From: a phage
DNA length: 45,774 bases
Strand: one strand, 5' to 3'
Sequence record: PZ349761.1
Every line of letters starts with the position of its first letter. Position 1 is the first letter of the stretch. Shown here piece by piece: positions 5,517 through 22,341 of the stretch. The position numbers and the translations under genes were made by a program. Below the pieces are notes generated by a model, which saw only the letters and a list, made by a program, of their open reading frames with translations, was not told where the DNA came from and made no database searches.

Positions 5517-5741
5517 ATGAGAACATTGAGGCAGATTTTACACGGCTGCAAGAAGCATCACTACGTTTACTATCGTGATATTAAATGGTTCGAGGAGGCT
5601 CATTGCAAAGGTGGTTACAAGACGAAGTTGATATGTAAGAAATGCAGGCACGTGACCAACAGCAAGGTTGATATGATGATTTGCCGTAGCACTCTTGATT
5701 ATATGCGTTACGGGCTCATAAAACCGCCAGTTAAGCCTTAA
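5517..5741 (+). CDS. small Cys/His-rich protein, possible zinc-ribbon
   Basis: CKKHH..HCKGG..CKKCRH..C pattern; in-frame ATG inside track ORF 5493-5741. Confidence 0.4.
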   Translation: MRTLRQILHGCKKHHYVYYRDIKWFEEAHCKGGYKTKLICKKCRHVTNSKVDMMICRSTLDYMRYGLIKPPVKP

Positions 5742-5950
5742 TTGTTAAAAATAGCTTGCACCACTGACCGGAATTATCTAATATTAACCACGTAGACAAA
5801 CGAGCCATCCAAGATGGAACGGCGCACGGAGTGCAACTACTAAGTCCGTTGCTCATTAAGTAGCGCATGCGGCATTAAGACCTAGCGCAAATAGGCAGAT
5901 TAACCGGCTGTATCAGGCAGCCCCGGAGCCGTAACCGGGACTCATTCAAG

Positions 5951-6028
5951 GCTCCGCTAGCTCAATTGGACAGAAGCAACGACCTTCTAAGTCGCAGGTT
6001 ACTGGTTCGAATCCAGTGCGGAGCGCCA
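5951..6028 (+). tRNA. tRNA-Arg (anticodon UCU), CCA encoded
   Basis: Cloverleaf read by eye: 7-bp acceptor GCTCCGC/GCGGAGC, T8, anticodon loop CTTCTAA with TCT at 5986-5988, T-arm ACTGG-TTCGAAT-CCAGT, discriminator G, CCA 6026-6028. Confidence 0.8.
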
Positions 6029-6055
6029 AACTTAACCAATAATCCTGGGGGATTT

Positions 6056-6268
6056 ATGAAGAAAGTAACAATAATTGTAAAGGATATTGAAAGCGGCACA
6101 AGTCAGAAGTTCAATGCCACACTTGATCTAGAGCATAAATGCTTAAAAGGTGTAATTGGCGGTGTGTCTGTTAGCGCAGATATTAATGCATATCTTGAAA
6201 TGGACCGTAAGGTATCAGAATTTAGCAAGCAGAAAGCGAAAATTAAAAATGCAATTATGGGACGTTAA
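6056..6268 (+). CDS. hypothetical small protein (70 aa)
   Basis: In-frame ATG with RBS GGGGGA just after tRNA, inside track ORF 5966-6268. Confidence 0.45.
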   Translation: MKKVTIIVKDIESGTSQKFNATLDLEHKCLKGVIGGVSVSADINAYLEMDRKVSEFSKQKAKIKNAIMGR

Positions 6269-6437
6269 ACTTTCTATCAGATTAATGGGCCGCTCGTGCA
6301 AGAGCTGCACCCAAGATTATGTAGCGTCAGTTGCCGCAATCAGCGCTGAGGATGCGGTAGCGAAAGTAAAGGAGATGTCAGGCGCTGACCCTGACACTCA
6401 CAAATTCCTGGTAGCTTACGTTCGTGAGCGAAAGTAA
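6249..6437 (+). CDS. hypothetical small protein (62 aa)
   Basis: In-frame ATG inside track ORF 6156-6437. Confidence 0.4.
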   Translation: MQLWDVKLSIRLMGRSCKSCTQDYVASVAAISAEDAVAKVKEMSGADPDTHKFLVAYVRERK

Positions 6438-6481
6438 AAAGTGTTATACCCTCGTTAAGTTTCGTTTCTCTCGTTGTTTTT

Positions 6482-6505
6482 AGCCCTCGCTTGAGGGCTT
6501 TTTTT
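6482..6505 (+). terminator. rho-independent terminator
   Basis: AGCCCTC-gctt-GAGGGCT hairpin followed by T6. Confidence 0.7.
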
Positions 6506-6548
6506 CGTCTGTAATATGGTATAATCTGACATCAACAAAGGAGGATTT

Positions 6549-7055
6549 ATGAGCAAAGCGGCATTAAAGATGGGTGAGGGAAATTTCAAGGCGCTCTACA
6601 ACAAGAAGTATGGCGATATTGCTATGGTGGCAATTAACCGCAAGTACACGCCTGAGGAAGTTTTTGATTTCGCTGTTCGATACTTCTCATGGGCAGAGAG
6701 TGAGGCAATCAAAGCTACTGAGACAGCAGCATTCCAGGGCGTGGTTAGCGAAAGTCTGGTGCACAAGCCTCGAGTGTTCACATTAACTGGCCTGGCGCTC
6801 TTCATGGGTGTTAACATCAATAGATTCGCTAAATGGCGCACTGAGGCTGGGTACTCTGATGTGATGGAATTCATTGATAACGTAATCTACGAGCAGAAGT
6901 ATCAGCTTGGCGTTGCAGGTATTATCAACTCCACAATCGTTGGTAAAGAGCTAGGCATTGATAAGCCGCAGGAGATTAAGATTAGCAACAACTCCACAGC
7001 TAACGACGTTGATAGCATGAAGGAAGCTCTGGAATCTGTGATTAGTAAGCTATAA
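6549..7055 (+). CDS. putative terminase small subunit
   Basis: 168-aa gene immediately upstream of large terminase, first gene of late block after terminator and extended -10 TGgTATAAT; assignment by position and size only. Confidence 0.5.
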   Translation: MSKAALKMGEGNFKALYNKKYGDIAMVAINRKYTPEEVFDFAVRYFSWAESEAIKATETAAFQGVVSESLVHKPRVFTLTGLALFMGVNINRFAKWRTEAGYSDVMEFIDNVIYEQKYQLGVAGIINSTIVGKELGIDKPQEIKISNNSTANDVDSMKEALESVISKL

Positions 7056-7164
7056 CAATAAGAGGGTATAACATGGTTATTTGCACATTTCTTGGTTGGT
7101 GGATGATGACCAGGAATCTTAACGCAGGACTGCTATATATAGTTATTAATATGGGGGTTTCTCA

Positions 7165-8730
7165 ATGTCTTTAGTGTGGGAAGAAATGACCATTCAGGAA
7201 AAGATGGCTGTCAAAGCGATATCAGAGCATAGCTTCGAGGGTTTTCTGCGCTGCTGGTTCCAAATAACACAAGGTGAGCGATACATCCCTAACTGGCATC
7301 ACAAGTACTTGTGCAGAATCATTGACGAGATTATCGCAGGGGAACGCAAGGACACCATCATTAACATAGCTCCGGGCAGCGGAAAGACGGAAATCACATC
7401 AATTCACTTCCCTGTATACTCTATGTTGAAGCTGAAGAAGGTTCGAAACCTTAATATCTCTTTCGCCGACTCAAACGTAAAGCGCAACTCAAAACGAGTG
7501 CGTGACTTAATATCATCAAAGGAGTTCCAGGAACTCTGGCCTTGCAAGTTCGGGACAAATAAGGATGACGAGATTCAGATCGTTGACGACAGCGGAAAGG
7601 TTAGATTCGAGTCCATATCAGCATCAAAAGGAGGCAGGATTACTGGCACGCGTGGTGGTTATATCACCGACACATACAGCGGCGCGGTAATGCTGGATGA
7701 CTTCGATAAACCAGACGAGATGTTTTCATCCGTATACAGGGCAAAGAGTCACACGCTGCTTGGCAATACCATTCGCTCACGCCGCGCTAGCTCGGTAAAA
7801 GGGAAGGCAACTCCAATTATCCAGATTCAGCAGCGACTTCACGTCAATGACTCAACGTGGTTCATGCTTAGCGGTGGTATGGGCATTGATTTTGATTTGG
7901 TGAAGATACCAGCACTGGTTACTGAAGATTACGTTGATACATTACCTGACTGGATTAAACAGCAATTCATTGATGACGTATTATCAAGCGAAAATATCGA
8001 GCGTGACGGAGTGAAGTATTACAGCTACTTCCCAGGGAAAGAGTCCGTGCATGACCTGGTTGCGATGTGGGATAGTGACCCGTACACATTCCTTAGCCAG
8101 TATCAACAAGAACCTGTAGCATTGGGCGGAAATCTTATTAACGTAGACTGGTTCCAGCGTCTTAGTGATACATTCAGGCCTCCAGTTAAGTATGATTACA
8201 GATTCATCACATGCGATACCGCGATGACTACAAAGAGTTATAGTGACTTCTCTGTACTTCAGTTGTGGGGATACAAGGATGCTAAGATTTACCTGATAGA
8301 CCAGCTCAGAGGAAAATGGGAAGCGCCGGAGTTGGAGGCTGAACTACTGGACTTCGAGAAGAAATCAAGGGCAACCAGTCAATCAGATGGCATACTCCGA
8401 AAGATCATCATCGAGAAGAAAGCCTCTGGTATCGGCCTGATTCAATCGGCAGGTAGAGTTATGCGAACACCGATAGAGCCATACGTTCCGGATAACGACA
8501 AGCTGACTCGCGTAATGAGCGCATTGCCACAGATTAAGGCTGGTAATGTCGTTCTTCCAGAGTCTGCGCCGTGGCTAAACGGATTGCTTACTGAGGTTGC
8601 TGCTTTTACGGCAGATGATAGCCACAAACACGACGACCAGATTGACTGTCTAACAATGGCAGTAAACCTTGTACTTAACATTGCGGACGACCCAAAAGCG
8701 CGACTAATGCGCATAGCGGGAATTAAATAG
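7165..8730 (+). CDS. terminase large subunit
   Basis: 521 aa; P-loop-like APGSGKTE near N-terminus, acidic nuclease-type C-terminal half; canonical position before portal. Confidence 0.85.
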   Translation: MSLVWEEMTIQEKMAVKAISEHSFEGFLRCWFQITQGERYIPNWHHKYLCRIIDEIIAGERKDTIINIAPGSGKTEITSIHFPVYSMLKLKKVRNLNISFADSNVKRNSKRVRDLISSKEFQELWPCKFGTNKDDEIQIVDDSGKVRFESISASKGGRITGTRGGYITDTYSGAVMLDDFDKPDEMFSSVYRAKSHTLLGNTIRSRRASSVKGKATPIIQIQQRLHVNDSTWFMLSGGMGIDFDLVKIPALVTEDYVDTLPDWIKQQFIDDVLSSENIERDGVKYYSYFPGKESVHDLVAMWDSDPYTFLSQYQQEPVALGGNLINVDWFQRLSDTFRPPVKYDYRFITCDTAMTTKSYSDFSVLQLWGYKDAKIYLIDQLRGKWEAPELEAELLDFEKKSRATSQSDGILRKIIIEKKASGIGLIQSAGRVMRTPIEPYVPDNDKLTRVMSALPQIKAGNVVLPESAPWLNGLLTEVAAFTADDSHKHDDQIDCLTMAVNLVLNIADDPKARLMRIAGIK

Positions 8731-8744
8731 CACGAATTGCTAAA
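8727..8744 (+). promoter_or_regulatory. conserved palindromic box ATAGCACgaattGCTAAA
   Basis: TAG stop of terminase gene inside box; TATAGT 8765-8770; leader CACACCAACGAGAGG; ATG 8802. Confidence 0.6.
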
Positions 8745-8801
8745 CGCTAGAGCCACGGATGGCGTATAGTTACTTCACACCAACGAGAGGAGAAAAGACA
8801 A

Positions 8802-9176
8802 ATGAAAAACAAATCAAAGGCTTTATATCTTGGAAACACCTATGACGAGTGTTGTGAATTCACTCCGGGAAGAGAGTACGATTTTTACGATCTTGGTGAT
8901 GGATTTATTGGTCTTTGCGATGATAATGATACTGAACGTTGCATTAAAAACGGAACGTTCTACAAGTTTAAACTAATCAATGAGGATCATTTTGTAACTG
9001 AAACTGAGTGCGCATCCATGCAGCCTGGCGCCGATAAAAAACCCGAGTTTAGATATTACATCAATGGCGAAGTGGTTACTAAGGTAAAGTTCGACGATAC
9101 GCTATTATGCGTCAAGGACTTTGAATCTAGTGGGGTTGATACATCATCAATCAAGTTCGAAGTAAAATTCGAGTAA
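8802..9176 (+). CDS. hypothetical Cys-containing protein (124 aa), moron-like insert between terminase and portal
   Basis: Own cassette promoter upstream and own terminator downstream. Confidence 0.55.
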   Translation: MKNKSKALYLGNTYDECCEFTPGREYDFYDLGDGFIGLCDDNDTERCIKNGTFYKFKLINEDHFVTETECASMQPGADKKPEFRYYINGEVVTKVKFDDTLLCVKDFESSGVDTSSIKFEVKFE

Positions 9177-9197
9177 TCAAAAACCGTGTGATAAACT

Positions 9198-9219
9198 AGC
9201 CCCCACATGGGGCTTTTTT
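9198..9219 (+). terminator. rho-independent terminator
   Basis: AGCCCCC-acat-GGGGCT hairpin plus T5. Confidence 0.65.
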
Positions 9220-9232
9220 ATTGGAGAAAAAC

Positions 9233-10486
9233 ATGGTCAAGACAGACAGCTACGCCAATATCTTTCTAGGCGGCAGTGATGGTAGTGAGATTTACGGGAG
9301 CTTACAGAATCAGGAGCCTACAATCCTGGCTTCTCTTTATGCGAATAATGCGCTGGTACGTAGAATTATCGACACAATCCCTGAGACAGCATTAGCGGCA
9401 GGATTCCACATTGATGGTATTGATGATGAGCCAGCATTTTGGTCGCGATGGGATGACCTGGAAATGACGCAGAATATTAACGACGCTTGGTCGTGGGCCA
9501 GATTGTTCGGTGGAGCCGCAATTGTCGCTATCGTTAAGGACAATAGAGCACTAACAAGTCCGGTCAGGGAGGGTGCTGAACTTGAAACTGTTAGAGTTTA
9601 CGATCGCACGCAAGTAAAAGTACAAACTCGCGAGGAGAATCCACGTAACGCACGTTTTGGTAAGCCACTAACCTATCGCATCACCACAAATGAGAGCGAT
9701 ATGTTCTATGATGTGCACTACAGCCGAATTCACATCATTGACGGAGAGCGAATTCCTAACGTAATGCGTCGGCAAAATGATGGCTGGGGCCGTAGCGTTC
9801 TATCCAGTGACATTCTTGACTCAATTAAGGATTACACCAACTGTGAACGACTTGCTACGCAGTTACTGAAGCGCAAGCAGCAGGCGGTGTGGAAGGCGAA
9901 AGGTCTGGCTGAGTTATGTGATGATAGCGAAGGATTTGGTGCAGCTCGATTGAGACTTGCACAGGTTGACAACAATAGCGGCGTAGGCCAGGCGATTGGT
10001 ATCGATGCGGAATCTGAAGAATACAGCATTCTCAACTCCGATATTGGCGGGATCGATGCGTTCCTGGATAAGAAGTTCGATAGAATCGTTGCCCTGAGCG
10101 GTATCCATGAAATCATCCTGAAAAACAAGAACGTTGGTGGTGTGTCATCAAGCCAGAATACAGCCCTTGAGACATTCCATAAGCTAGTTGACCGCAAACG
10201 TAACTCTGAGTTGCTTCCTATTCTTGGGTTCTTAATCCCGTTCATCGTAAATGTAGAAGAGTGGTCAGTTGAGTTTTATCCTTTAGCTCAGGAATCAAGC
10301 AAGGATAAGGCTGAGATTCTGGAGAAGAACGTAAACAGCATTGCATCACTAATTGAATCTGGCGCTATGAATGCTAACGAGGCACGTGATACACTACGAG
10401 CCATCGCACCAGAGATTAAGATTGGTGATGGTGATATTGAAGCTCAACAACAAGAACCAGAAGAGGAGGTTGTAATTAATGAGTAA
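9233..10486 (+). CDS. portal protein
   Basis: About 417 aa directly after terminase; start set to ATG 9233 with RBS GGAG (track start 9221 is TTG). Confidence 0.7.
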   Translation: MVKTDSYANIFLGGSDGSEIYGSLQNQEPTILASLYANNALVRRIIDTIPETALAAGFHIDGIDDEPAFWSRWDDLEMTQNINDAWSWARLFGGAAIVAIVKDNRALTSPVREGAELETVRVYDRTQVKVQTREENPRNARFGKPLTYRITTNESDMFYDVHYSRIHIIDGERIPNVMRRQNDGWGRSVLSSDILDSIKDYTNCERLATQLLKRKQQAVWKAKGLAELCDDSEGFGAARLRLAQVDNNSGVGQAIGIDAESEEYSILNSDIGGIDAFLDKKFDRIVALSGIHEIILKNKNVGGVSSSQNTALETFHKLVDRKRNSELLPILGFLIPFIVNVEEWSVEFYPLAQESSKDKAEILEKNVNSIASLIESGAMNANEARDTLRAIAPEIKIGDGDIEAQQQEPEEEVVINE

Positions 10487-11567
10487 AATCCGCTATGACA
10501 GCGCAAAGTTTAAGGCAACAATCGACGAGAATGGATTCTTAGTCGACACGCCAGTAGTCGCACGTCTAGGCGTGCAGGTCTACTACATGGAGGACGGCCG
10601 CACTGTTCGAGAGTTTCGCCCAGCAGAGGAAGTTTTCAAGGATGAATCCCTCGCGAGCTACCAGGGTAAGCCAATGACTCTGGACCATGTTTTCGTTAAC
10701 TCAGAGAACGCCAAGGAGGTAGTGGTAGGTTCAGTTACTGGCAAGGCTGAACCATTGGGTAGCTCAGTGGTTGCTCCTATTGTTGTTTACGACAACACAG
10801 CCATTCAGGAAGCTATGGCAGGTAACGCTAAAGAGTTATCCGTTGGATACTCATCAGTTATTGATTACACCCCCGGCTGGGGCGACCCTGTTACTGGCGA
10901 GTACTTCCTCAAGTCTGAAAGTGAGCTATTCGACGTACCAGAAGGATGGCAGGAGTTCGACGCAATTCAGCGTGACATTAAAGTGAACCATCTGGCAATG
11001 GTGTATCGCGGTCGCGCAGGTATTGCCAAATTGAATATGGACGGTGAGCAGGAAAACCCGTATACTACTGACGTTGATATCAATAAAGAGGATAAACAGG
11101 AAATGACAGTTAAAATTAAACTCGACGGCGCGCAGGAATTTGAGGTCGCCCCGGAAATCGCCTCTCACATCGAAGCACTGAACGCAAAGGCTGACACCGC
11201 AATCGCAGAGCGCGATTCTCTGAAAGCTAAAGTTGATGCAATGCCTGCTGAAATCGAGGCCGCAGTTGCTAAAGCGAAAGCTGATGCTGATGCCCTGGCT
11301 GCTCTGGTTGCTGTTGCTGCTGAGGCTGGTGTAAAGGCTGATGGACTGGATGCTAAAGGCATTAAAGTAGCTTACGTTAAGGAAGTCTCAGGCCTGGATG
11401 TTTCCGAGAAGTCCGACGCGTACATCGACGCAGCGTTCGACATTGCCAAAGAATCTGATAAAATGGCTGAAGTACGTAAAGCGACTACCGCTTCCGACAA
11501 ATCTGACAGCGCCGATGAGCCTAAGAAATTAGACCCACGTGCTCGTTTAGCTAAAATTAAGAAATAA
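10479..11567 (+). CDS. putative prohead protease/scaffolding protein
   Basis: Globular N-terminal half then Ala/Lys/Glu-rich predicted coiled coil; between portal and capsid genes. Confidence 0.5.
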   Translation: MSKIRYDSAKFKATIDENGFLVDTPVVARLGVQVYYMEDGRTVREFRPAEEVFKDESLASYQGKPMTLDHVFVNSENAKEVVVGSVTGKAEPLGSSVVAPIVVYDNTAIQEAMAGNAKELSVGYSSVIDYTPGWGDPVTGEYFLKSESELFDVPEGWQEFDAIQRDIKVNHLAMVYRGRAGIAKLNMDGEQENPYTTDVDINKEDKQEMTVKIKLDGAQEFEVAPEIASHIEALNAKADTAIAERDSLKAKVDAMPAEIEAAVAKAKADADALAALVAVAAEAGVKADGLDAKGIKVAYVKEVSGLDVSEKSDAYIDAAFDIAKESDKMAEVRKATTASDKSDSADEPKKLDPRARLAKIKK

Positions 11568-11579
11568 GGAGTTATAAAC

Positions 11580-12101
11580 ATGGCAATTCGTTCCGTAGCA
11601 CTGGCTGGTATGGTTTCTGATACTTCTCTGTACAACATCGACGGCGCTTGCGTAGTTGGCGGCGCAGCAGCCATTCCGGTTGGCACTTTTGTTGGAGTTA
11701 CATCCGCTCAGCCTGTAGATGGTCACAAGGTTGTTGGGCTTCCTGCTGTGACTGGCACACCAGTTAAACCTTACGGTGTTGTTGTTAAATCTCATTATGA
11801 GACTCCAGATGGCACTGCTCGCGTAAATGAAGCGGTTAACGTGATGACACACGGTCGAATCTGGGTTCGTACAACTCTAGCGGCTGCGCCAGTTTTTGGT
11901 AGTAAGGTTTACGTAAACGCGAGTGGCGTTGTTGCTGCTGAGGCTGCTACCACTACCTGGGAAACTGGTTTTACATTTGCTGGTGGCTATGTGTCGGCTT
12001 ACGCTGGCGGCGCTGACCCAATTAAGCAAGGTGAAAGCGTTGATGGTGCAATGGTTGAGGTTCAGTTGATTCAATCAGCAGACTCAACTGTCGCTGCTTA
12101 A
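11580..12101 (+). CDS. capsid-associated structural protein (possible decoration protein)
   Basis: Gly/Ala/Val-rich 173-aa protein immediately upstream of major capsid gene. Confidence 0.4.
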   Translation: MAIRSVALAGMVSDTSLYNIDGACVVGGAAAIPVGTFVGVTSAQPVDGHKVVGLPAVTGTPVKPYGVVVKSHYETPDGTARVNEAVNVMTHGRIWVRTTLAAAPVFGSKVYVNASGVVAAEAATTTWETGFTFAGGYVSAYAGGADPIKQGESVDGAMVEVQLIQSADSTVAA

Positions 12102-12118
12102 TAATTAAGATATATAAA

Positions 12119-12140
12119 GCCTCCTTCGGGAGGTTTTTTT
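12119..12140 (+). terminator. rho-independent terminator
   Basis: CCTCC-ttcg-GGAGG hairpin plus T7. Confidence 0.7.
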
Positions 12141-12146
12141 ATACCA

Positions 12147-12174
12147 TTGCGTGGGCTAAAAACTAGTGTATAAT
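12147..12174 (+). promoter_or_regulatory. sigma70-like promoter (TTGCGT-N16-TATAAT) for major capsid gene
   Basis: -35-like 12147-12152 and consensus -10 12169-12174. Confidence 0.55.
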
Positions 12175-12212
12175 GAACCCGTAGACACCTAACTGAAAAG
12201 GAACAATAAAGA

Positions 12213-13154
12213 ATGGCCATTAAATTTGATGCAGAACAAGCAAAAATCACCGCTCACCTCGAGCAAATGGGCGTAGAGAGAGCGGATGCCGCTGGTATCT
12301 GGACCGTAAAGCAGCTTACCGCAGCACTTAATCGTGCTTACGAAAAAGAATACGCAGAAAACTCTGTTGTTAATATCTTCCCCGTAACCAATGAAATACC
12401 TGGTCATGCGAAGTATTTCGAATATCCAGAATTTGATGGTGTTGGCATTGCTCAGATTATCGCTGATTACTCTGACGACCTGCCGCTGGTTGATGCTTTC
12501 ATGACAGAGAAGCAAGGTAAAGTGTTCCGTTTCGGTAACGCATTCCTGATTTCCACTGATGAAATTAAAGCAGGTGCAGCTACCGGTCAGCCACTGTCAA
12601 CTCGCAAACAGGCACTTGCTTTCGAAGCGCACGACAACCTGTTGGACAAATTGGTTTGGTCTGGTTCCGCTCCGCACGGAATTCCTAGCGTATTCAACCA
12701 TCCTAACATCAACAACGTTGTTGCTGGTACGTGGAACTCCGCAGCTGCCGCCATGACCAATATCACAGCACTTATTGACGCAATCGAGACTTCGACTAAT
12801 GGCACTCACACCGCAACTGATATTTTGCTGCCTGCTTCCGCTCGCCGCCTGATGCAAGAGCTGGTTCCTAACACCTCCATCAGTTACGCGCAACTGTTCG
12901 CCACCAACAACTCTGGCATCAATCTGCGTTATCTTCAGTTCCTGGATAACTACGATGGCGCAGGCGGCAAGGCTGCCCTGGCTTTTGAGAAGGATCCGCT
13001 GAACGCTAGCATCGAGATTCCAGAAGCTACCAACGTACTTCCTGGTCAACCGAAAGATTTGCACTTTAAGTACCCGGTAACTTCTAAAGCGACAGGTTTG
13101 ATTTTATATCGTCCTCTGACGATGGCAGTAATGAAAGGCATTACCTACGAGTAA
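12213..13154 (+). CDS. major capsid protein
   Basis: 313 aa; insulated by terminators on both sides with a near-consensus promoter; position after scaffold. Confidence 0.7.
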   Translation: MAIKFDAEQAKITAHLEQMGVERADAAGIWTVKQLTAALNRAYEKEYAENSVVNIFPVTNEIPGHAKYFEYPEFDGVGIAQIIADYSDDLPLVDAFMTEKQGKVFRFGNAFLISTDEIKAGAATGQPLSTRKQALAFEAHDNLLDKLVWSGSAPHGIPSVFNHPNINNVVAGTWNSAAAAMTNITALIDAIETSTNGTHTATDILLPASARRLMQELVPNTSISYAQLFATNNSGINLRYLQFLDNYDGAGGKAALAFEKDPLNASIEIPEATNVLPGQPKDLHFKYPVTSKATGLILYRPLTMAVMKGITYE

Positions 13155-13160
13155 TAAATG

Positions 13161-13182
13161 GCCCTCTTCGGAGGGCTTTTTT
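13161..13182 (+). terminator. rho-independent terminator
   Basis: GCCCTC-ttcg-GAGGGC hairpin plus T6. Confidence 0.7.
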
Positions 13183-13246
13183 ACGTCTGTACCAAATGGA
13201 TTTGTTGAGTTATAATCACTCAATCAGATAAACAAAGGAGACAAAA

Positions 13247-13492
13247 ATGATTCGTTTAGAACACACTGGCGCTTGCCTTATCGTTTATAAGGGTGAGAAA
13301 TATCTGCCTGGTGACACTTTCGAGGTTGATGTAATTTGCGACGGACTCAAGCGTTTAATTGCAGAGGGTAAGCTAACCATTGAGGGTGACGCAAAAACAA
13401 CCAAACAGATCGCGCAAGAAATTGTTAGCAAGAAAAAGCGCAAAGAACCGAAAACCATCTCCGAAGCTGAGACTGGCAACGAGTACAAATAA
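13247..13492 (+). CDS. hypothetical head/connector-region protein (81 aa)
   Basis: ORF with RBS AAGGAG; between capsid and tail genes. Confidence 0.45.
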   Translation: MIRLEHTGACLIVYKGEKYLPGDTFEVDVICDGLKRLIAEGKLTIEGDAKTTKQIAQEIVSKKKRKEPKTISEAETGNEYK

Positions 13493-13518
13493 CAAACAGG
13501 GCGCTTCGGCGTCCTTTA

Positions 13519-13935
13519 TTGTATGGAGTTAATATGAATGATGCAATTTTGGCGTTTATGCGCTCACTTGTTCCTGCGCTCAAGGCAGTGGATGACGAAT
13601 CAATTAATGTGTGGATCGATTTGGCACGTCTCTACGTATGTGAGAGTAAGTTTGGTAATGATGCAGATCGCGCTGTGGGCCTTTATGCATTACACCTGAT
13701 GCTTTCTGATGGCGCTTTTAAGGGTGAGAATGAAGGCCTTGAGACATACAGCCGTAGAATGGCAAGTTATGCACTGAGCGGTGAATTCTCTATCACCTAT
13801 GATAACCAATCAGCAATCCAAGGTGATTTATCATCTTCCTCCTGGGGCCGTATGTACAAAGCACTTCTCCGCAAGAAAGGTGGCGGCTTTGGACTGATTA
13901 CTTCCGCTCGTGGCGGTGGGTGCGGTTGCCGATGA
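13519..13935 (+). CDS. putative head-tail connector/adaptor protein
   Basis: Position in head-tail joining block; no specific motif. Confidence 0.4.
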   Translation: MYGVNMNDAILAFMRSLVPALKAVDDESINVWIDLARLYVCESKFGNDADRAVGLYALHLMLSDGAFKGENEGLETYSRRMASYALSGEFSITYDNQSAIQGDLSSSSWGRMYKALLRKKGGGFGLITSARGGGCGCR

Positions 13936-14303
13936 ACTACAACGAAATTGAATCAATCACTCGCGCTGGAATTAACTTCTTTAGTGATGCCAATGGCGTC
14001 TACGAGATGAGCACTGGTGCTGGATATGTTAAAATCGTCAATGGCGTTGAAGTAGAAGTGCCAGCGCAAACATTCCAGCTAAAAGGCTTAGTGCGAGAAA
14101 TCAAGACGCGAGATATTGATGGCGAGTTTATCCAGTTTGGCGATAAGCGCGGAATCTTCACAGCACAGGCGGAAATTAAGCAGGGTTATCAGATTAAAGT
14201 TGATGGCGAGACTTTCGTTGTTGTTGACCCTCGGCCTGTAAAACCAACCGGCACAGTTGTTGGTTATAGACCGATTCTTCGTAGGGTGGCTACTTATGGC
14301 TAG
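13932..14303 (+). CDS. putative head-tail joining protein
   Basis: ATG overlapping upstream TGA (ATGA). Confidence 0.4.
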   Translation: MNYNEIESITRAGINFFSDANGVYEMSTGAGYVKIVNGVEVEVPAQTFQLKGLVREIKTRDIDGEFIQFGDKRGIFTAQAEIKQGYQIKVDGETFVVVDPRPVKPTGTVVGYRPILRRVATYG

Positions 14304-14733
14304 AAATATTGGAAGTGTCGCTACGTTTGAGAAATCTATTGCTGACTGGATTAACAGAGCAGATAAGGGATTTGAAATTGTAGTCGCCAACACGGTTACC
14401 AAGACAGCCAACGCAATTGTGGACCTTTCCCCTGTCGACACTGGTAGATTCAAGGCTAACTGGCAAATTACCGCAAACTCACCAGCCCAGCAGTCTCTGA
14501 ATGAGTACGATCAGACTGGCGGGCAGACAAAAACATATCTCGCCAGACAAGCCAGAGCAGTAGCCAATTCAAAAGCCACTAGTGTTATTTATATCACCAA
14601 CCGACTTGATTACGCAGCCGACCTTGAGTATGGAGCTTCAAATCAGGCTCCGTCTGGTGTTTTGGGCGTGGTGCAAGCGAGGCTTGGCAGGTATTTTCAA
14701 GAAGCAGTGGAGGAGGCTCGTCGTGCAATATGA
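14296..14733 (+). CDS. putative tail completion/neck protein
   Basis: ATG overlapping upstream stop; position only. Confidence 0.4.
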   Translation: MARNIGSVATFEKSIADWINRADKGFEIVVANTVTKTANAIVDLSPVDTGRFKANWQITANSPAQQSLNEYDQTGGQTKTYLARQARAVANSKATSVIYITNRLDYAADLEYGASNQAPSGVLGVVQARLGRYFQEAVEEARRAI

Positions 14734-15124
14734 ATTATCATTAGCAGCAAGGAAATTCGTCAACGATTTGTTGGTAAATGAATTTCCGGTCAGATATCCA
14801 GTTGCGTGGGAGAATGCTGCATTCACCCCTCCTGCGGATGGATCAATCTGGCTTAAGTACGACTACACGGAAGTTGATACTGTAACCTACGGATTAAGCA
14901 GGAAGTGCAAATACTACGTAGGCATGGTGCAGATTTCTGTTTTCTTCAGCCCTGGCACTGGAATTGATAGACCCAGACAAATCGCTAATCAATTGGCAGA
15001 ATCTATCGTTGATGGTACAATGCTTGACAGCGGGACCATTTATGAGTCTGGAGTTGTTAACCCGGTTATCAAATCCAAATCTGGGTGGTTTATCCCGGTT
15101 CGTTTTTATGTTCGTCTAGACTAA
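14723..15124 (+). CDS. putative tail terminator-type protein
   Basis: GTG start 9 nt after GGAGGA, overlapping upstream stop. Confidence 0.4.
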   Translation: MQYELSLAARKFVNDLLVNEFPVRYPVAWENAAFTPPADGSIWLKYDYTEVDTVTYGLSRKCKYYVGMVQISVFFSPGTGIDRPRQIANQLAESIVDGTMLDSGTIYESGVVNPVIKSKSGWFIPVRFYVRLD

Positions 15125-15139
15125 CAAAAGGAAAAATAC

Positions 15140-15796
15140 ATGGCTCATTTATCAAACGGCACTCAGGTGTTCGTAGAAGGCTCTCGCGGTGATGCGATTG
15201 ACGTAACTGCAATTTCTAACGCAGTTACCCCTGTTTTAACTGTATCTGACGCTTCTGGTTTGGTCGTTGGTGATTACCTGCTTTTCACCTCTTCTGCTTC
15301 AACGCTTCTGGCTGACAAGCAAGTTCGAGTGACTGCAATCACTGGTACGTCAGTAACTGTTGAAGGTATTGACACCTCCAGCACCACCAAGTTCCCGGCC
15401 GGTTTGACTGGTGAAGTCGTTAAGATCACCTCCTGGTTCGAAGTTCCGTGTGTTCGGGATGTTTCTACTGACGGCGGCGAACAGCAGTTCGTTAACTTCC
15501 AGTGTCTTTCTGATGACCGTGAACAGCAGATTCCGACTTATAAATCTGCGGTAACAAACACCTTTACCTTTGCTCATGAGTACACTAACCCGGTCTATCC
15601 GGTTCTGCGTAACTACGATGAGTCGGGCCAGGTTGTTGCGATTCGCCTGTTCGTACCTCGCGCCCAGGAAATGCGCTTGCAGTCCGGCACTATCGCTTTC
15701 AACGACACCCCTACCATTGGTGTTAACGAAATCGAAACGGTATCCATCGCGGTATCCATTCGTGGTCGACTGTCCTCTGTGGCAGCGGAAGTTTAA
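15140..15796 (+). CDS. major tail (tube) protein
   Basis: 218 aa directly upstream of chaperones and tape measure; followed by strong terminator. Confidence 0.6.
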   Translation: MAHLSNGTQVFVEGSRGDAIDVTAISNAVTPVLTVSDASGLVVGDYLLFTSSASTLLADKQVRVTAITGTSVTVEGIDTSSTTKFPAGLTGEVVKITSWFEVPCVRDVSTDGGEQQFVNFQCLSDDREQQIPTYKSAVTNTFTFAHEYTNPVYPVLRNYDESGQVVAIRLFVPRAQEMRLQSGTIAFNDTPTIGVNEIETVSIAVSIRGRLSSVAAEV

Positions 15797-15802
15797 AACA
15801 CA

Positions 15803-15824
15803 AACCCTCTCCGGAGGGTTTTTT
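15803..15824 (+). terminator. rho-independent terminator
   Basis: CCCTC-tccg-GAGGG hairpin plus T6. Confidence 0.7.
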
Positions 15825-15829
15825 ATTGC

Positions 15830-15847
15830 ATAGCACTTTTTGATAAA
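15830..15847 (+). promoter_or_regulatory. conserved box variant ATAGCACtttttGATAAA
   Basis: 22-nt spacer, TATAGT 15868-15873, CATCGAAACGA 15879-15889, ATG 15907. Confidence 0.55.
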
Positions 15848-15906
15848 GCGCTCATTCAACTTTGATGTATAGTTAACTCATCGAAACGAAATGAGAGATT
15901 AAAGAA

Positions 15907-16155
15907 ATGAATAACGTTAAAAACATCATCAAGATTGCTGCGGTTCTGTTTGCTTTTTATGCGGTAGTTCAGATTATAAACCCAACAGGTGAGGCTGATG
16001 CCAATAGCAAGGCAAACAAATATACTGTTGAATTTGCTAAGGCTGAGCGAGCATGTCAGGAGCTTGTAGGTGGCAAAGTTGACCAAATCATGAAATACGG
16101 CAAAGAGGTTTGTAAGGACTCGGCTGCTAAGATTGCAAAAGAAAACACTAAGTAA
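15907..16155 (+). CDS. small exported/membrane-anchored protein (82 aa), moron-like insert in tail gene cluster
   Basis: N-terminal hydrophobic segment IIKIAAVLFAFYAVVQII; own cassette promoter. Confidence 0.5.
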   Translation: MNNVKNIIKIAAVLFAFYAVVQIINPTGEADANSKANKYTVEFAKAERACQELVGGKVDQIMKYGKEVCKDSAAKIAKENTK

Positions 16156-16193
16156 TAGAATACATACTCACAAACAATAAGAGGATTAACAAA

Positions 16194-16508
16194 ATGGCAA
16201 AGTTCAAACTTTCACTGGCGGCACTCCCAGACTTTAAGCTACCAGTAAAATTTAAGCTGGCTAACGACCAGGATGTAGAGGTTATCTTTACAGTCAAGCA
16301 CAAGAAAACATCTGAGTTGCAGGGGCTGCTTAGCAAGGAAGACTTGAGCACAAAAGAGCTTATTATGGCAATTGCCTCTGATTGGGATCTGGAAGAAGAA
16401 TACAACGAAGATAACGTTAATGAGTTCTCAGACCTTTTCCCGGCCTCAACTGTTGCGCTGACAACTGCTTACATGCAAGCGCTTGCTGGTCAGCGAGTAA
16501 AAAACTAA
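16194..16508 (+). CDS. tail assembly chaperone (gpG-like)
   Basis: 104-aa acidic protein just upstream of tape measure; slippery heptamer A-AAA-AAC at its 3' end. Confidence 0.65.
   Translation: MAKFKLSLAALPDFKLPVKFKLANDQDVEVIFTVKHKKTSELQGLLSKEDLSTKELIMAIASDWDLEEEYNEDNVNEFSDLFPASTVALTTAYMQALAGQRVKN
16499..16505 (+). other. programmed -1 ribosomal frameshift slippery site A AAA AAC
   Basis: Heptamer sits in zero frame 2 codons before the G stop; -1 frame reads directly into ORF 16517-16828. Confidence 0.6.
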
Positions 16509-16516
16509 AACGAGCG

Positions 16517-16828
16517 GTGTATCTACAGTACCAGTCAGAGCCAACTGATGCCGAGCTGGAAGCTATTGGGATGCGCCGCTCTGATTACGAAGATGAAGAG
16601 CCTGAAGTTTTGCACTTCGACGACAACATGATGAAGGCGTGGGACATTTACTGTTCAATGGCTACACAATGGAGAGTCGGGGCTAACGGAGCTACAGGGT
16701 TAGATTACAACGTGCTAAATTTCCTCTTTAGAGTGTATAATGTTTCTGAAGAAGAATTGGTACTCAGCGATTTACGCATCCTTGAAGCTAAGGCTCTTGA
16801 GATGATGGATAACCTGAGAAAAAAATAA
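16517..16828 (+). CDS. tail assembly chaperone T-frame (probably made only as G-T fusion)
   Basis: ORF has no ATG (track start is GTG) and is in the -1 frame relative to G. Confidence 0.55.
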   Translation: MYLQYQSEPTDAELEAIGMRRSDYEDEEPEVLHFDDNMMKAWDIYCSMATQWRVGANGATGLDYNVLNFLFRVYNVSEEELVLSDLRILEAKALEMMDNLRKK

Positions 16829-16846
16829 CCCGCTTCGGCGGGTTTT
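16829..16846 (+). terminator. terminator-like hairpin
   Basis: CCCGC-ttcg-GCGGG plus T4. Confidence 0.5.
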
Positions 16847-16863
16847 CTATTGTGGAGGCTTAG

Positions 16864-19842
16864 ATGGCAACAAATGAATTAGCCGGAATCACACTAGCCG
16901 TAGATGTCTCGCAAGTAGACAGGGGAACGCAATCCCTGCAAAAGTTCAGACAGGCAAACCAGCAAGCCGCTTCAGGTATTAGTGAATTCGTCAACGCTGA
17001 GCAGGTTGCTAAAAACCAGGCGAGAGATACGGCTCGTGCACTTTCTGAGCAGCAAGCGTCACTAGCTAAATTGCAAACAGCTATCGACCCAACTGCTGCA
17101 AAGTTCCGCAAGCTGCAAGAGGCAGCAGTGGGTCTTGATAAGGCATTCGCGGCTGGCGTAGTTCCTGATGAGGAGTTTTTCCGCTTAGGCGAGGCGCTTG
17201 AAACTCAGAATGCAAAACTTGCTCGTTCACGCGCAGCTCTCACAGAAGAGGGAAGAGCGGCGGCGCAGGCTGCAAAAGATAAGGCAAGGGCAAAGGCCGA
17301 GGCGGATAGATTCATTGCATCACTTGAGCGTCAGGCTCAGGCTGCAACATTGACGCGCGAGGAGTACTTAAAATTACAGGCGGCCCAGCTTGGCGTTAGT
17401 TCTCAGGCAGCACCCATCATTGACAGAATCGCCGACGCATCACAGAAGGCAAACACCCAGTTAATTGCTCAGAGTAAGGCTTTTCAGAAATCAGGATTAA
17501 GCGCCGGGCAATACAAGAATGCCATATCTCAACTACCAGCGCAGATTACTGATATTGGCACGTCGCTTGCTGGCGGCATTCCGATTTGGCTTATTGCAAT
17601 TCAGCAAGGTGGGCAGATCAAGGATGCATTTGGCGGCATTGGTAACACCTTTAGATTCGCACTTGCAGCCTTAAACCCATTCAATGTAGCTGTTGGTGTT
17701 TTGGGTGGGGTACTTGTAGCTCTTGGTGTTGGTGCGGCTCAGGCTGAAAGTGAATTCAGGGCGTTAAACTCTGCTATTGCATTCTCCAACAACTCAACAA
17801 TTACATCAATCTCGCAAGTTAGAGAGTTGGTTAGCTCCGTCTCTGATGCAACGGGTGCCACCAGGGGGCTTGTGACTAGCATCGCAACAAGCCTTGTGGA
17901 ACAAGGAAACCTTACGCTAACGCAGATTGACAAGATTACTAAATCGACAGCAAGATGGGCGCAGTTGACAGGCAAGGACGCGAAGGAAATTACTGGTTAC
18001 TATAACCAGATTGCGAGCGACCCAATACAGGGATTGGTTGATTTGGATAAGCGCTTTAACTTCCTCACGCAGGGGCAGTTGACAACAATCGAAAACCTGA
18101 GAAAGACAAAGGGGGAAGTAGAGGCCGTTACCGCCGCGATAGATATTTTCAGCAAGTCACAGGAAGCTAACCTTAACGATATTGCGGCTCAATTGACACC
18201 ACTTGAGCTAGCCTGGAATGATTTCAGAAAGTACATCTCTGATATCTGGGATGCAATTAGTCGCAGAACAGTTGGGGCTCTAAACCTTTTCGTTGACGTT
18301 ATAGCTGGAACAATTGAACAGATTAGAGTCTTCCTTAATCAGGGTGATGTACTGATTGGTGAATTCGTAATTAGCGCAACTCAGGCATTGCAGAACATTC
18401 CTGGTCTTGATGGGGTTGGTGATGATGTTATCAAGGGCCAGCAGAAGATTATCGATGCCGCCAAGAAGCAAAACCTTGAGCTAGAGAAGTCTATCAGGGA
18501 GCGTGATGCCAGAATCAGAGAGGGAGAACTCGGTTACGTTACTCGCAGAGAGAATCAGAATACCAATGAGCAATCCGGTACTGATGAGGAATTCGCAAAA
18601 AGGAAGAAGGCACTTAAGGATGAGCTTGATGCGATCAAGAAAAACAGAGCTGAGGAAAAAGGAAGAGTTAAAGAGCAAAGGGACCTTACCATAGGATATG
18701 AATCTGGCGTGCTGGCACTTCAGGCTCAACTCAAGGTTCTTCAGGAAAACAGGGATATCGGTGCGGTAATAAGCAATGAGCGCAAGCAGTATCTTCAGGA
18801 AGAGGCTAAATTCAGGATCCTTGAGCAGAGGCAACTTGATGGCTCAATTACCAAAGAACAAGCAAGACTCCTCATTGAAAAGGATAAAGTTCTTGAGTTG
18901 GCCAAACAGAAGGCTGAGCTAGGCGATCAGATTGTTTTGCAGGAGCGCGCTAATAAGTTAGCTGAAGATAACCGCAAGAAGATTCTTCAGATTAACAATG
19001 AGGCTGCCAACATAGATATTGGTTCTGGATTATCATCTCGCGAGCAGCAAAGAGCTAAAGAGTTGCAGGCTCTTCAGTCCAATCAGGTTAACGCTGGCGG
19101 CTCTCTTGATGATGTTGATTTTCAGCAATTGCTGGAAGCAAGAAAGGAATACTACAAACAGGAGGATAATCTTAGGTCAGACTGGCAATCAGGCGTAACA
19201 TCCACTCTCGCCGACTTGACAGAGAAGTACACTGATTACAACCAGATTGCTAAGGACTTGACAGTTGCGGCATTCGATGGAATTACAGACCAGATTACAA
19301 ACCTTGTGACCACTGGTGAGACTAATTTCAGAGATTTCACGGCAAGCATCCTCAAAATGATTGCGAAGATTGCAACTCAGTTACTTTTGGTTAAGGCTAT
19401 AGAATCAACATTAACTAGCTTTGGCGGTGGAGGAGGTAATGCGTTTGCCTCTTTTGCTTCTGCTATAGGTTTCGCCGGTGGCGGCTATACTGGTGATGGC
19501 GGGAAGTATCAGCCAGCAGGAACTGTACACCGTGGTGAGTTTGTATTCACAAAAGAAGCAACAAGCCGCATTGGTGTTAAGAACCTTTACGCGCTAATGA
19601 AAGGTTATGCAAACGGCGGCGCTGTTGGTGGTCCTTCTGGTTATGCAAATGGCGGCTTGGTTTCTGGTGGCCCTAATGTTGATATTAGTGGTATCACTGT
19701 TAACGTAAACTCCGGGGTTGGTAGCGACCCAGAGCAAGCTAAGGCGTTGCAAAACGGAGTTAAGGCAATCGTAGCGGAAGAGATTGCTCAGTCCTTCCAG
19801 CAGGGTGGCAGAGCTTATCAGTATCTTCGAGGATTTAACTAA
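16864..19842 (+). CDS. tail tape measure protein
   Basis: 992 aa; long Ala/Gln/Glu-rich helical regions, hydrophobic central segment, Gly-rich C-terminus; follows G/T. Confidence 0.85.
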   Translation: MATNELAGITLAVDVSQVDRGTQSLQKFRQANQQAASGISEFVNAEQVAKNQARDTARALSEQQASLAKLQTAIDPTAAKFRKLQEAAVGLDKAFAAGVVPDEEFFRLGEALETQNAKLARSRAALTEEGRAAAQAAKDKARAKAEADRFIASLERQAQAATLTREEYLKLQAAQLGVSSQAAPIIDRIADASQKANTQLIAQSKAFQKSGLSAGQYKNAISQLPAQITDIGTSLAGGIPIWLIAIQQGGQIKDAFGGIGNTFRFALAALNPFNVAVGVLGGVLVALGVGAAQAESEFRALNSAIAFSNNSTITSISQVRELVSSVSDATGATRGLVTSIATSLVEQGNLTLTQIDKITKSTARWAQLTGKDAKEITGYYNQIASDPIQGLVDLDKRFNFLTQGQLTTIENLRKTKGEVEAVTAAIDIFSKSQEANLNDIAAQLTPLELAWNDFRKYISDIWDAISRRTVGALNLFVDVIAGTIEQIRVFLNQGDVLIGEFVISATQALQNIPGLDGVGDDVIKGQQKIIDAAKKQNLELEKSIRERDARIREGELGYVTRRENQNTNEQSGTDEEFAKRKKALKDELDAIKKNRAEEKGRVKEQRDLTIGYESGVLALQAQLKVLQENRDIGAVISNERKQYLQEEAKFRILEQRQLDGSITKEQARLLIEKDKVLELAKQKAELGDQIVLQERANKLAEDNRKKILQINNEAANIDIGSGLSSREQQRAKELQALQSNQVNAGGSLDDVDFQQLLEARKEYYKQEDNLRSDWQSGVTSTLADLTEKYTDYNQIAKDLTVAAFDGITDQITNLVTTGETNFRDFTASILKMIAKIATQLLLVKAIESTLTSFGGGGGNAFASFASAIGFAGGGYTGDGGKYQPAGTVHRGEFVFTKEATSRIGVKNLYALMKGYANGGAVGGPSGYANGGLVSGGPNVDISGITVNVNSGVGSDPEQAKALQNGVKAIVAEEIAQSFQQGGRAYQYLRGFN

Positions 19843-19872
19843 TTGACGGGGCTTCGGCCCCTAAGGATTTTT

Positions 19873-20223
19873 ATGGCTATTGATACTTTTAACTGGTGCA
19901 CGCAAATCCAGGGTGGATCAGCTTCATTCAGTAACACAAACAACGTGCGAATTGTTAGCTTCGGCAATGGTTACGAGCAGCGCGGTACGGGTGGCTATCG
20001 CAGCAACAAACGCAGTTACCATATGACCTACACCAATAAGGACTGGCGTGAGGTGATGGATTTTTGCTTCAACCACATCATCACTCCATTCTTCTGGACA
20101 ACTCCACAGGGTGATACATCAATGTTTGTTATCCAGCAGGACAGCATTAGTGTCACACCACTCAGTAAGGAAGTTCAGACTGTAAACATGCAATTCGTAG
20201 AAGTATTTAGCTCAATGAGTTAA
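19873..20223 (+). CDS. minor tail protein (gpM-like)
   Basis: About 116 aa directly after tape measure; start set to ATG 19873 (track start 19843 is TTG inside hairpin). Confidence 0.5.
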   Translation: MAIDTFNWCTQIQGGSASFSNTNNVRIVSFGNGYEQRGTGGYRSNKRSYHMTYTNKDWREVMDFCFNHIITPFFWTTPQGDTSMFVIQQDSISVTPLSKEVQTVNMQFVEVFSSMS

Positions 20224-20227
20224 ACTA

Positions 20228-20251
20228 AGCCCCATTAGGGGCTTTTTTTTT
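20228..20251 (+). terminator. rho-independent terminator
   Basis: AGCCCC-atta-GGGGCT hairpin plus T8. Confidence 0.65.
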
Positions 20252-20264
20252 ATTGGAGAAAATC

Positions 20265-21020
20265 ATGTTAAGTCCAAAGTTTGAAAATCAGTTGCAAAGC
20301 CTTTTCCCCGGAGAGATTGTTACTCTAATCCAGGTTGATGGAACCTCCTTTGGAAGTCTCGTTTACAACTTCCACAATGAGAACATTTCATACACGCCAG
20401 AAGAAATCATGCTAGCCCAAATGAATGGCGAGCCACTACCAGAGAAGACGATTACATTTCGCGGTGAAGAGTACGGGCCTCGACCATTTGGTATCTCGGG
20501 TATCAACATGACGTCTGACGGCAAGGCCAACAAAGTTACGCTAACAGTATCAAACGTAGACCAGCGCATTAGCGCATTGATCCGTACCTATAATGGATTG
20601 GTTAAGGCAAAGGTCACCATCTGGATTACTACGCGAGATAACATCAATGAAGACGGAAGCATTGCTGACGGGGACTATCGCAGATTCGTTTACTTCATTG
20701 AGCGACCAAAGCAGGTTGACTACAAAACGGCATCATTTGAGCTAAGCAGCCCTATGGATATGGATGGCATTTACATTCCAGCGAGACTTGTTCAGTCTGT
20801 TTGCTATTGGGCTTCCAGGGGGTGGTATCGTAGCGGGAATGGTTGCGACTATGCTGGCAATCGTTATTTTGACAAGGATGACAATCCAGTTGATGACCCC
20901 TCTTTAGACTTCTGCTCTGGAACAGTAAACAGCTGTAAGATTAGGTTTGGTGAGAATAATCAGCTTTCATTTGGCGGATGCGCGGCAGCAAGCCTTCAGG
21001 CCAAAGCCAATCAGAGTTAA
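20265..21020 (+). CDS. minor tail protein (gpL-like)
   Basis: About 251 aa; C-terminal Cys cluster C..C..C..C as in tail tip L proteins; ATG 20265 with RBS GGAG. Confidence 0.6.
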   Translation: MLSPKFENQLQSLFPGEIVTLIQVDGTSFGSLVYNFHNENISYTPEEIMLAQMNGEPLPEKTITFRGEEYGPRPFGISGINMTSDGKANKVTLTVSNVDQRISALIRTYNGLVKAKVTIWITTRDNINEDGSIADGDYRRFVYFIERPKQVDYKTASFELSSPMDMDGIYIPARLVQSVCYWASRGWYRSGNGCDYAGNRYFDKDDNPVDDPSLDFCSGTVNSCKIRFGENNQLSFGGCAAASLQAKANQS

Positions 21021-21029
21021 GGGGTATAT

Positions 21030-21788: not shown

Positions 21789-22341
21789 TATTAAGTTAGG
21801 ATTATCACTAGGCCGTAAATTTGGAAAGATTCACCAAATGGCAGTGAGTAGCGTGCCAGAGGCAATGCGAGCGCTGTGTTCACAGATTCCTGCTTTCAAG
21901 GAGTTCATGAATAGCCATGTCGGTCAGAACACAAAGTACGCCGTGTTCGTTGATGGCAAAAATGTGAACGAGCATAGAATCTCTGATTTTAGTGCCGTTC
22001 AGGAGATACGCATCTTACCAATCCCTCAAGGTCGCAAGTCCGGCGGGTTGTTTCAGACAATTTTAGGCGCCGCGCTTATCGTGGTTGGTTACTTCACTGG
22101 CCAGATTTATCTTGTTGGGGCTGGTATATCGCTAGCGGCTGGCGGCGTTGCGCAGCTACTTTCACCACAGGCAACAGGATTGAAGACTCAGAGCAACCAA
22201 ACAAGCAACAGGGCATCATACGCATTCGGCTCAGCCGTAAACACAGTGGCTGCTGGTTATCCAGTTTGTCTTCCGTATGGATATCGAACGGTTGGCGGTT
22301 CTGTGTTTAGTGCGGGTTCATATAGTGAAGACATTGCTTAA
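21769..22341 (+). CDS. tail assembly protein (gpI-like)
   Basis: 190 aa with hydrophobic Gly-rich segment; between K and J. Confidence 0.5.
   Translation: MTQKLIDIKLGLSLGRKFGKIHQMAVSSVPEAMRALCSQIPAFKEFMNSHVGQNTKYAVFVDGKNVNEHRISDFSAVQEIRILPIPQGRKSGGLFQTILGAALIVVGYFTGQIYLVGAGISLAAGGVAQLLSPQATGLKTQSNQTSNRASYAFGSAVNTVAAGYPVCLPYGYRTVGGSVFSAGSYSEDIA

Follow-up and report, generated by a model that had tools for sequence, protein, structure and literature searches.

A phage tRNA-Arg(UCU) gene and the conserved, probably folded leader RNA that precedes it upstream of the terminase genes in T1-like coliphages

Positions 5951-6028 of the 45,774-bp stretch of phage DNA analysed here (the window, meaning that whole stretch) carry an apparent tRNA gene, and the locus raises the questions of whether the tRNA is genuine, what it would do for the phage and why it lies immediately behind a long block of noncoding DNA. 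The window comes from a T1-like coliphage, a siphovirus in the Rtp group (Braunvirinae, Drexlerviridae); its nearest record, vB_EcoD_SU57, aligns with 86% of the first 25 kb at ~89% identity. ARAGORN identified one tRNA only in the window, a tRNA-Arg with anticodon tct at 5951-6028 (+), and a scan of the whole window with Rfam at gathering thresholds returned RF00005 (tRNA) as its single match, covering 5951-6025 at full length (model positions 1-71) with 55.6 bits versus a gathering threshold of 29 (E = 2e-9). The two programs agree with an earlier note on this DNA, which had proposed a tRNA-Arg beginning at 5951 with a UCU anticodon and an encoded CCA, and the coordinates it gave were exact. 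The gene is 78 nt long, i.e. 75 nt plus the CCA at 6026-6028, with the anticodon at 5986-5988 and the discriminator G at 6025; the acceptor stem has 7 bp, the anticodon loop is CUUCUAA and the T-loop UUCGAAU. The arginine identity elements used by E. coli ArgRS are A20, C35, U36/G36 and A/G73, all of which are present, the phage tRNA having G18 G19 A20, U34 C35 U36 and G73 before the CCA. To call the cloverleaf clean, as had been done, was slightly generous: it scores well above the RF00005 threshold, but two pairs in the Rfam alignment are non-standard, C13.A22 and A27.C43. The latter, which leaves the top pair of the anticodon stem mismatched, occurs in the window only (C43 is position 5995), every sampled relative having U43. 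Compensatory changes across relatives keep all four stems, including C-G to U-A at acceptor pair 7:66 in MM01 and IME542, C-G to U-A at acceptor pair 2:71 in TR2 and ES, and double changes in the T stem and anticodon stem in MM01. Positions 5951-6028 thus encode a genuine phage tRNA-Arg(UCU), which would probably be made at the 3' end of a precursor transcript of its own.

Single tRNA-Arg genes are the commonest of phage tRNAs, and the gene described here is no exception. A tRNA-Arg is annotated at the same locus in dozens of relatives, among them SU57, CEB_EC3a, MSK/OzMSK, BASEL Bas01-03 and MM01; the tRNA itself is therefore already known and ordinary for Rtp-like T1-like coliphages. The literature has noted a single 78-nt tRNA-Arg in Braunvirinae coliphages, with Rtp and DTL stated to be without it (PMC8421802). 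That published absence is an annotation artefact, in that ARAGORN finds the gene both in Rtp (L003:1915-1991) and in DTL (L011:9978-10055), the GenBank/RefSeq records of which leave it unannotated. The tRNA-Arg(UCU) genes of Braunvirinae coliphages share locus and leader with the window and are 92-97% identical to its tRNA; the window copy, with its C43, has no identical record, the best match being 97.4%. Host argU is ~80% identical. The two tRNAs have the same anticodon loop, nearly the same anticodon and D arms (a single stem base differs in the anticodon stem-loop), GGA after the D-stem, discriminator G and an encoded CCA, whereas the acceptor and T stems have diverged, the D region carries a one-base insertion and the DNA upstream of the phage gene bears no likeness to that upstream of argU. 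Rare-codon Arg (and Ile) tRNAs are likewise encoded by the ileZ-argN-argO cluster of Stx-converting lambdoid phages, and argO-type tRNAs are among the distant matches to the window tRNA; these are, however, only ~76% identical to it and come from a different phage family.

The ORF that precedes the tRNA stops at 5741, and the DNA from there to 5950 had been described in the earlier note as an unusually long (~210 bp), GC-richer noncoding stretch. That description is real as to composition (GC 0.54 in 5791-5950 versus 0.44 for the genome) and as to the lack of coding character, but the stretch is not empty, since it holds a promoter and a structured leader. Among relatives 5742-5950 is conserved at 92-98%, far above the flanking coding DNA; in several of them the upstream coding DNA is not even alignable. 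Coding within 5742-5950 was considered and rejected, because the lengths of the indels in relatives (4, 22 and 58 nt) cannot be divided by three and because the hairpins have changed in a compensatory way. A 45-aa ORF on the minus strand (5731-5868) does overlap the stretch, and a few records annotate a CDS over the leader, with inconsistent strands (minus in ESCO41, plus in Rogue1, a 'transcriptional repressor' in TR2); none of the feature tables inspected has an RNA feature there.

The promoter is a sigma70-like site at 5756-5784 (+), recognised from its sequence and conserved in relatives, with a -35 hexamer TTGCAC (5756-5761), a 17-nt spacer and a -10 hexamer TAATAT (5779-5784); an A-rich tract lies before the site, and transcription is predicted to start at ~5790-5792. 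In the window it scores 7/12, below the cut-off of a simple scanner. The hexamers differ in ES, TR2, the Rogunavirinae (Rogue1), Nouzillyvirus (ESCO41) and T1, being TTGACA/TTGACG/TTGACC-17-TAGTAT/TACATT in ES, Rogue1, ESCO41 and T1, with the distance from the promoter to the motif CGTAGAC unchanged throughout. This fixed distance places the 5' end of the RNA near 5790-5792. The assignment of the gene to the early region was not established, because the gene is served by a promoter of its own and lies where a small-ORF block gives way to the packaging genes, with terS ~520 nt downstream.

The RNA predicted to start there begins with a 160-nt leader (5791-5950, +), for which RNAalifold on 12 diverse Braunvirinae leaders predicts 30 pairs in six helices; at 10 of these pairs both partners have changed in a compensatory way. 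The hairpins that concern us are H1 (5801-5821, core 5805-5817), H2 (5822-5834), H3 (5844-5873), H5 (5907-5921) and H6 (5922-5939, loop AGCCGUAA), all on the + strand and the last two also supported by family-wide covariation; a linker, ACUCAUUCAAG (5940-5950, +), separates H6 from the tRNA. In the alignment 98.3% of cells are paired, compared with 88.2% in column shuffles, and 10 pairs are double-changed compared with 6.2, with none of 500 shuffles reaching as high; when the partners were slid by 1-3 columns as a control, only 0-2 compensatory pairs remained. The covariation signal comes from H1, H5 and H6, H2 being invariant and H3 little varied. Frequent G-U pairs point to RNA of the + strand, and ~10 nt at the 5' end of the leader are unpaired yet conserved. 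The folding energy of the single sequence is no better than that of shuffles (z = 0.14), so that the case for structure rests on covariation only, among fairly close relatives. On that evidence, 5791-5950 very likely is a conserved folded RNA.

At two sites in the leader, relatives carry additional hairpins (4, 22, 58 or more nt), which is how a modular RNA, and not a gene, would be expected to vary. The H5-H6 module is tandemly duplicated in JulesPiccard (L017:790-910), and AugustePiccard and Rtp have extra hairpin insertions of at least 58 nt in the middle of the leader. No family in Rfam 15 matched 5742-5950 by covariance model even at E<=10, and 5,426 E. coli genomes contained no match to the leader, which led us to reject a host origin for it; so far as could be found, the leader RNA is undescribed. 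Several smaller proposals were also set aside. The motif CGGAGC recurs in H2, in the H6 loop and in the 3' acceptor strand of the tRNA, but by eye the leader copies do not covary with the acceptor change of TR2 and ES, as pairing between leader and tRNA, or descent from decayed tRNA remnants, would have predicted. A pseudoknot of 2 bp, in which the CG that precedes H5 would pair with the CG of the H6 loop, is backed by a single double change (in the e4/1c clade), which is too weak, and comparison of the linker with boxA and of GGA loops with CsrA sites gave partial matches by eye only.

The leader extends well beyond the nearest relatives. It was found in 89 phage records, and a leader covariance model and similarity searches recovered diverged copies in T1, Nouzillyvirus, the Rogunavirinae and Pantoea phage AAS23, so that it occupies one and the same genomic position throughout the Drexlerviridae. 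Within H5-H6, pairing is kept in 179/180 cells (20 distinct sequences from five lineages); two positions of H5 show all four types of Watson-Crick pair and three positions of H6 vary, and the loops are conserved, as ..C(C/G)GUAA in H6 and, outside the Braunvirinae, as AUUGUGAAA in H5. Short-word searches added little: the 18-mer AACGGCGCRCGKAGCGMA gave mostly chance matches in metagenome and genome contigs, from GC-rich genomes, of which nhmmer retained only L093, L098, L132 and L139 together with the viral contigs L027 and L031, and the 15-mer GGATTCCGTAACCGG gave mostly chance matches in viral contigs, a handful of which passed a structure filter. An H6 hairpin identical to that of the window (GCCGGAUUCCGUAACCGGC) is present in two contigs (L300:6206-6259, - strand, and L304:1594-1647, - strand) related to Plesiomonas phage phiP4-7 (L377), which is not T1-like. 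In these phiP4-7-like contigs H6 follows a TTGCAC-17-TAGTAT promoter and lies ~290 nt before a terminator and downstream of recombination genes, with a different H5.

What follows the leader varies. In the window the tRNA starts right after ...CUCAUUCAAG, the last leader motif being UUCAAG. In TR2, ES and the Rogunavirinae the slot holds tRNA-Arg(CCU) instead of UCU, a diverged leader standing directly upstream of it in the Rogunavirinae. Shigella phage Sd1 (L276:651-805) has the leader, then tRNA-Trp(CCA), then tRNA-Arg(CCU), and in Nouzillyvirus ESCO41 the leader is upstream of tRNA-Arg(UCU) and of a second, class-II-like tRNA with anticodon UAU. Such a second tRNA of ~100 nt follows tRNA-Arg in PCEc3 (L001:2324-2425), EC3a, ESCO41 (L280, ~674-775) and Phleasolo (L273:778-870); it has a long variable arm, would read the rare Ile codon AUA, and scores 39.4 bits with Rfam, above threshold, although ARAGORN misses it or calls it 'tRNA-???'. 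The window lacks it. The pairing of a UAU tRNA with an Arg tRNA in these relatives is comparable to ileZ-argN-argO.

Nouzillyvirus 50EP, Pantoea phage AAS23 and T1 have the leader without any tRNA. In T1 it lies at L282 7623-7743 (30.6 bits, E = 1e-8), and its end, ...AACAAUUCAAG, is followed directly by AGGAUUGCAUAAUG, where gene 57 starts; in the tRNA-less phages nothing separates the leader from the ribosome-binding site of whichever small ORF comes next. The occurrence of the leader in phages without the tRNA marks it as the older element and the tRNA as an insertion into it, and it means that the leader cannot exist only to process the window tRNA. The range of tRNAs found at the junction after the leader likewise makes it appear a recurrent insertion point for tRNA genes.

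As to what the tRNA contributes, the earlier note had offered compensation for phage codon usage or protection against host defences that target tRNAs. Codons were counted with one ORF heuristic for all phages and from annotated genes for a 50-kb sample of E. coli K-12 (70 genes). In the window, with its UCU tRNA, AGA and AGG occur 9.8 and 7.0 times per 1000 codons and together make up 36% of Arg codons; in the K-12 sample the corresponding values are 2.1, 1.2 and 5%, so the two codons are 4.6x and 5.8x commoner in the phage, and the phage tRNA does read a codon that is rare in the host, as had been claimed. Rogue1, with a CCU tRNA at the slot, has 7.4 AGA and 12.0 AGG per 1000 (40% of Arg codons), and T1, with no tRNA at the slot, 7.6 and 5.3 (26%). 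Within the window AGA peaks at 11.3 per 1000 in the packaging and virion genes (6549-25808). The anticodon carried follows the AGA:AGG balance, as a decoding supplement predicts, in the three phages (UCU, CCU and none), which amount to a small natural experiment on the anticodon carried against the AGA:AGG ratio used. Compensation for codon usage is supported: AGA and AGG are enriched relative to the host, the AGG-rich relative has CCU and T1 is lower, but T1 still uses many AGR codons without the tRNA, and the 128 AGA codons observed in the window do not exceed the 166 expected from its own base composition, so the bias may be compositional rather than selected. Overall, the codon data, from three genomes and a heuristic ORF set, fit a role as a decoding supplement.

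The other proposal, that the phage tRNA-Arg replaces or shields host tRNA-Arg when a tRNA-cleaving defence fires (an anticodon nuclease, a retron effector or a colicin-D-like enzyme), appears decidedly unlikely. Precedents exist: PMC12916289 cites Burman 2024 and Azam 2024 for phage tRNAs that neutralise PARIS and tRNases linked to retrons, and retron Eco2 is reported to nick the acceptor stems of several host tRNAs, tRNA-Arg being one of them. The differences from argU are mainly in the acceptor and T stems. The anticodon arm tells the other way, its loop being identical to that of argU and nearly the whole arm the same, one stem base apart; an anticodon-loop nuclease would therefore cut the phage tRNA too, and neither the loop-mutation signature described for evading tRNAs nor any defence-evading variant of the CUUCUAA loop was met with in the phage gene. 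Moreover, sister lineages swap to CCU or add Trp or UAU tRNAs, which tracks codon usage instead, and our search of the literature found no defence specific to tRNA-Arg(UCU). For nucleases that recognise the acceptor stem such protection is still conceivable, but the suggestion that the gene counters host tRNA-targeting defences found no support here.

The genes beyond the tRNA give the leader its context. The first ORF after the tRNA (6056-6268, +) encodes 70 aa (phrog_16862) and is followed by a 62-aa ORF (6249-6437, +; phrog_2919), a homologue of T1 ST56 and the constant downstream partner of the leader; the ORFs beside the tRNA match only PHROGs of unknown function and gave no Pfam match above threshold. 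A terminator scan places a strong intrinsic terminator (AGCCCTC-GCTT-GAGGGCT followed by T7) at 6482-6506 (+), and the terminase small subunit gene terS (6549-7055, +) then starts the packaging/virion operon. The same order, of promoter, leader, optional tRNAs, one to three small ORFs, strong terminator and terS, is found in the five lineages checked; the terminator before terS is annotated in T1, EC3a and MM01, and is found by the scan in Rogue1 and in the AAS23-like L328. No promoter-like site was detected by the scan between the 6482 terminator and terS. In 6000-25999 there are 37 terminator-like sites compared with 16.4 expected, and 23 sigma70-like sites compared with 30, i.e. the latter are not enriched. 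Strong terminators on the + strand of the packaging/virion operon lie at 6482, 9198, 13160, 13498, 15802, 16827, 20227, 22349 and 25814, and the annotation of T1 is similar.

The window also contains a promoter-like repeat of ~55 nt, in which AAATAGCACGAATTGCTAAA is followed after ~20 nt by TATAGT and then by TACCCCATCGAAACGA. It has at least 12 copies on the + strand (1824, 2616, 3144, 4027, 4944, 8725, 15828, 29387, 33220, 37255, 38298 and 40213) and reverse-complement copies near 27108, 44533 and 45602; the first copy beyond the 6482 terminator lies after terL, at 8725. Phage TLS has the same element, described there as a direct repeat of 21 nt (PMC11447400). The repeat has the look of a promoter class peculiar to the phage, with an operator or UP-like box upstream. 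The tRNA promoter was compared with this class (AAATAGCAC...TTGCTAAA) and is not a member of it. Two further direct repeats were noted, 104-204 versus 27195-27295 (101 nt, 78%) and 342-387 versus 27415-27460 (46 nt, 76%), in regions both of which precede small ORFs.

With respect to the role of the leader, it is quite possible, if short of probable, that it is a promoter-proximal, cis-acting RNA that sets how much transcription or expression gets past the small ORFs and the strong terminator to reach terS and terL. One specific form of such control would be processive antitermination or anti-pausing like that of HK022 put, in which the nascent H5-H6, with the 5' module, would modify E. coli RNA polymerase and let it pass the 6482 terminator, and perhaps later ones, on its way to terS, terL and the virion genes, the tRNA riding along in a heavily transcribed leader. 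We regard this form as rather unlikely, even though much of the layout is what it would predict: the leader is promoter-proximal at a fixed distance from the start, H5 and H6 abut, covary and have conserved loops, a strong terminator stands between leader and terS in five of the five lineages checked, no promoter-like site intervenes before terS, terminator-like sites are in excess in the late region, and H6 lies behind a promoter and before a terminator in the unrelated phiP4-7-like phages as well. Release of the tRNA would not be an obstacle, because put acts without an RNA tether (PMC9378689), so that excision by RNase P would be tolerated. The likeness to put is, however, one of layout only (promoter-proximal position, two stem-loops, terminators following). 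We found no similarity in sequence or structure to the HK022 immunity region, the R1 model reaching 4.9 bits at best in the part of that genome taken as PL/putL and PR/putR (put sites are unannotated in the record), and the leader hairpins are about half the size, H5-H6 covering ~35 nt compared with ~70 nt for put. The phage also has its own repeated promoters (8725, 15828) after several late terminators, which fits the older 'transcripton' model (PMC11447400), so special read-through is not required for most late genes. In the Stx-converting phages the ileZ-argN-argO tRNAs likewise lie within a promoter-proximal leader, after the late promoter and ahead of the late genes; the antiterminator of those phages is a known protein, Q.

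The leader might instead have no regulatory or trans-acting role, serving as a scaffold for processing and stability that protects an untranslated 5' region of 270 nt from Rho and RNase E and offers the tRNA for cleavage by RNase P. Its position directly 5' of the RNase P site, its high structure and GC content and the insertion and loss of mid-leader hairpins without harm are all in keeping with this; the persistence of the leader in T1, 50EP and AAS23, which have no tRNA to process, is not, and a generic scaffold needs neither the unpaired but conserved 5' nucleotides nor loops conserved across subfamilies (..CCGUAA in H6 and the H5 loop given above) and even in an unrelated phage group. On balance we also consider a scaffold unlikely. 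A stable, trans-acting small RNA released by RNase P would have a precedent in T4, where two stable RNAs, rnaC and rnaD (120-140 nt), adjoin the phage tRNA-Arg within one transcription unit, and wherever a tRNA follows, the leader would come free with defined ends. The T4 RNAs lie 3' of the tRNA, whereas the window leader lies 5' of it; the R1 model scored no more than 2.8 bits anywhere in the tRNA region of T4, in the tRNA-less phages the leader has no defined 3' end and no terminator follows H6, and no target complementarity was identified. Such a small RNA is very unlikely in our estimation. Returning to cis-acting control of the terminase genes, a wider version holds that the leader, and chiefly its H5-H6 part, represents an undescribed family of cis-acting RNAs that T1-like phages share with one or more unrelated groups of enterobacterial phages and that controls how transcription elongates or terminates on the way to the terminase and late genes, in a put-like but non-homologous manner, with the junction after it serving as a landing site for tRNAs; in that breadth the proposal is doubtful.

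The events at the locus can be outlined with due reservation. Host RNA polymerase would start near 5790-5792 from the promoter at 5756-5784, RNase P would cut at 5950/5951 and free the tRNA, and host ArgRS would charge it; the anticodon arm is essentially that of argU, so the same host modification enzymes that act on argU should act on the phage tRNA. The charged tRNA-Arg would add decoding capacity for AGA and, by wobble, for AGG, codons whose use in the phage is ~5x that in the host and is highest in the packaging and virion genes.

The tRNA adds little by itself, and the leader is the part worth following up. To our knowledge, the control of late transcription in T1-like phages has never been worked out. 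The leader lies at the entry to the terminase genes and, if it regulates transcription, would offer both a way into late gene control in T1 and a second example of elongation controlled by RNA only.
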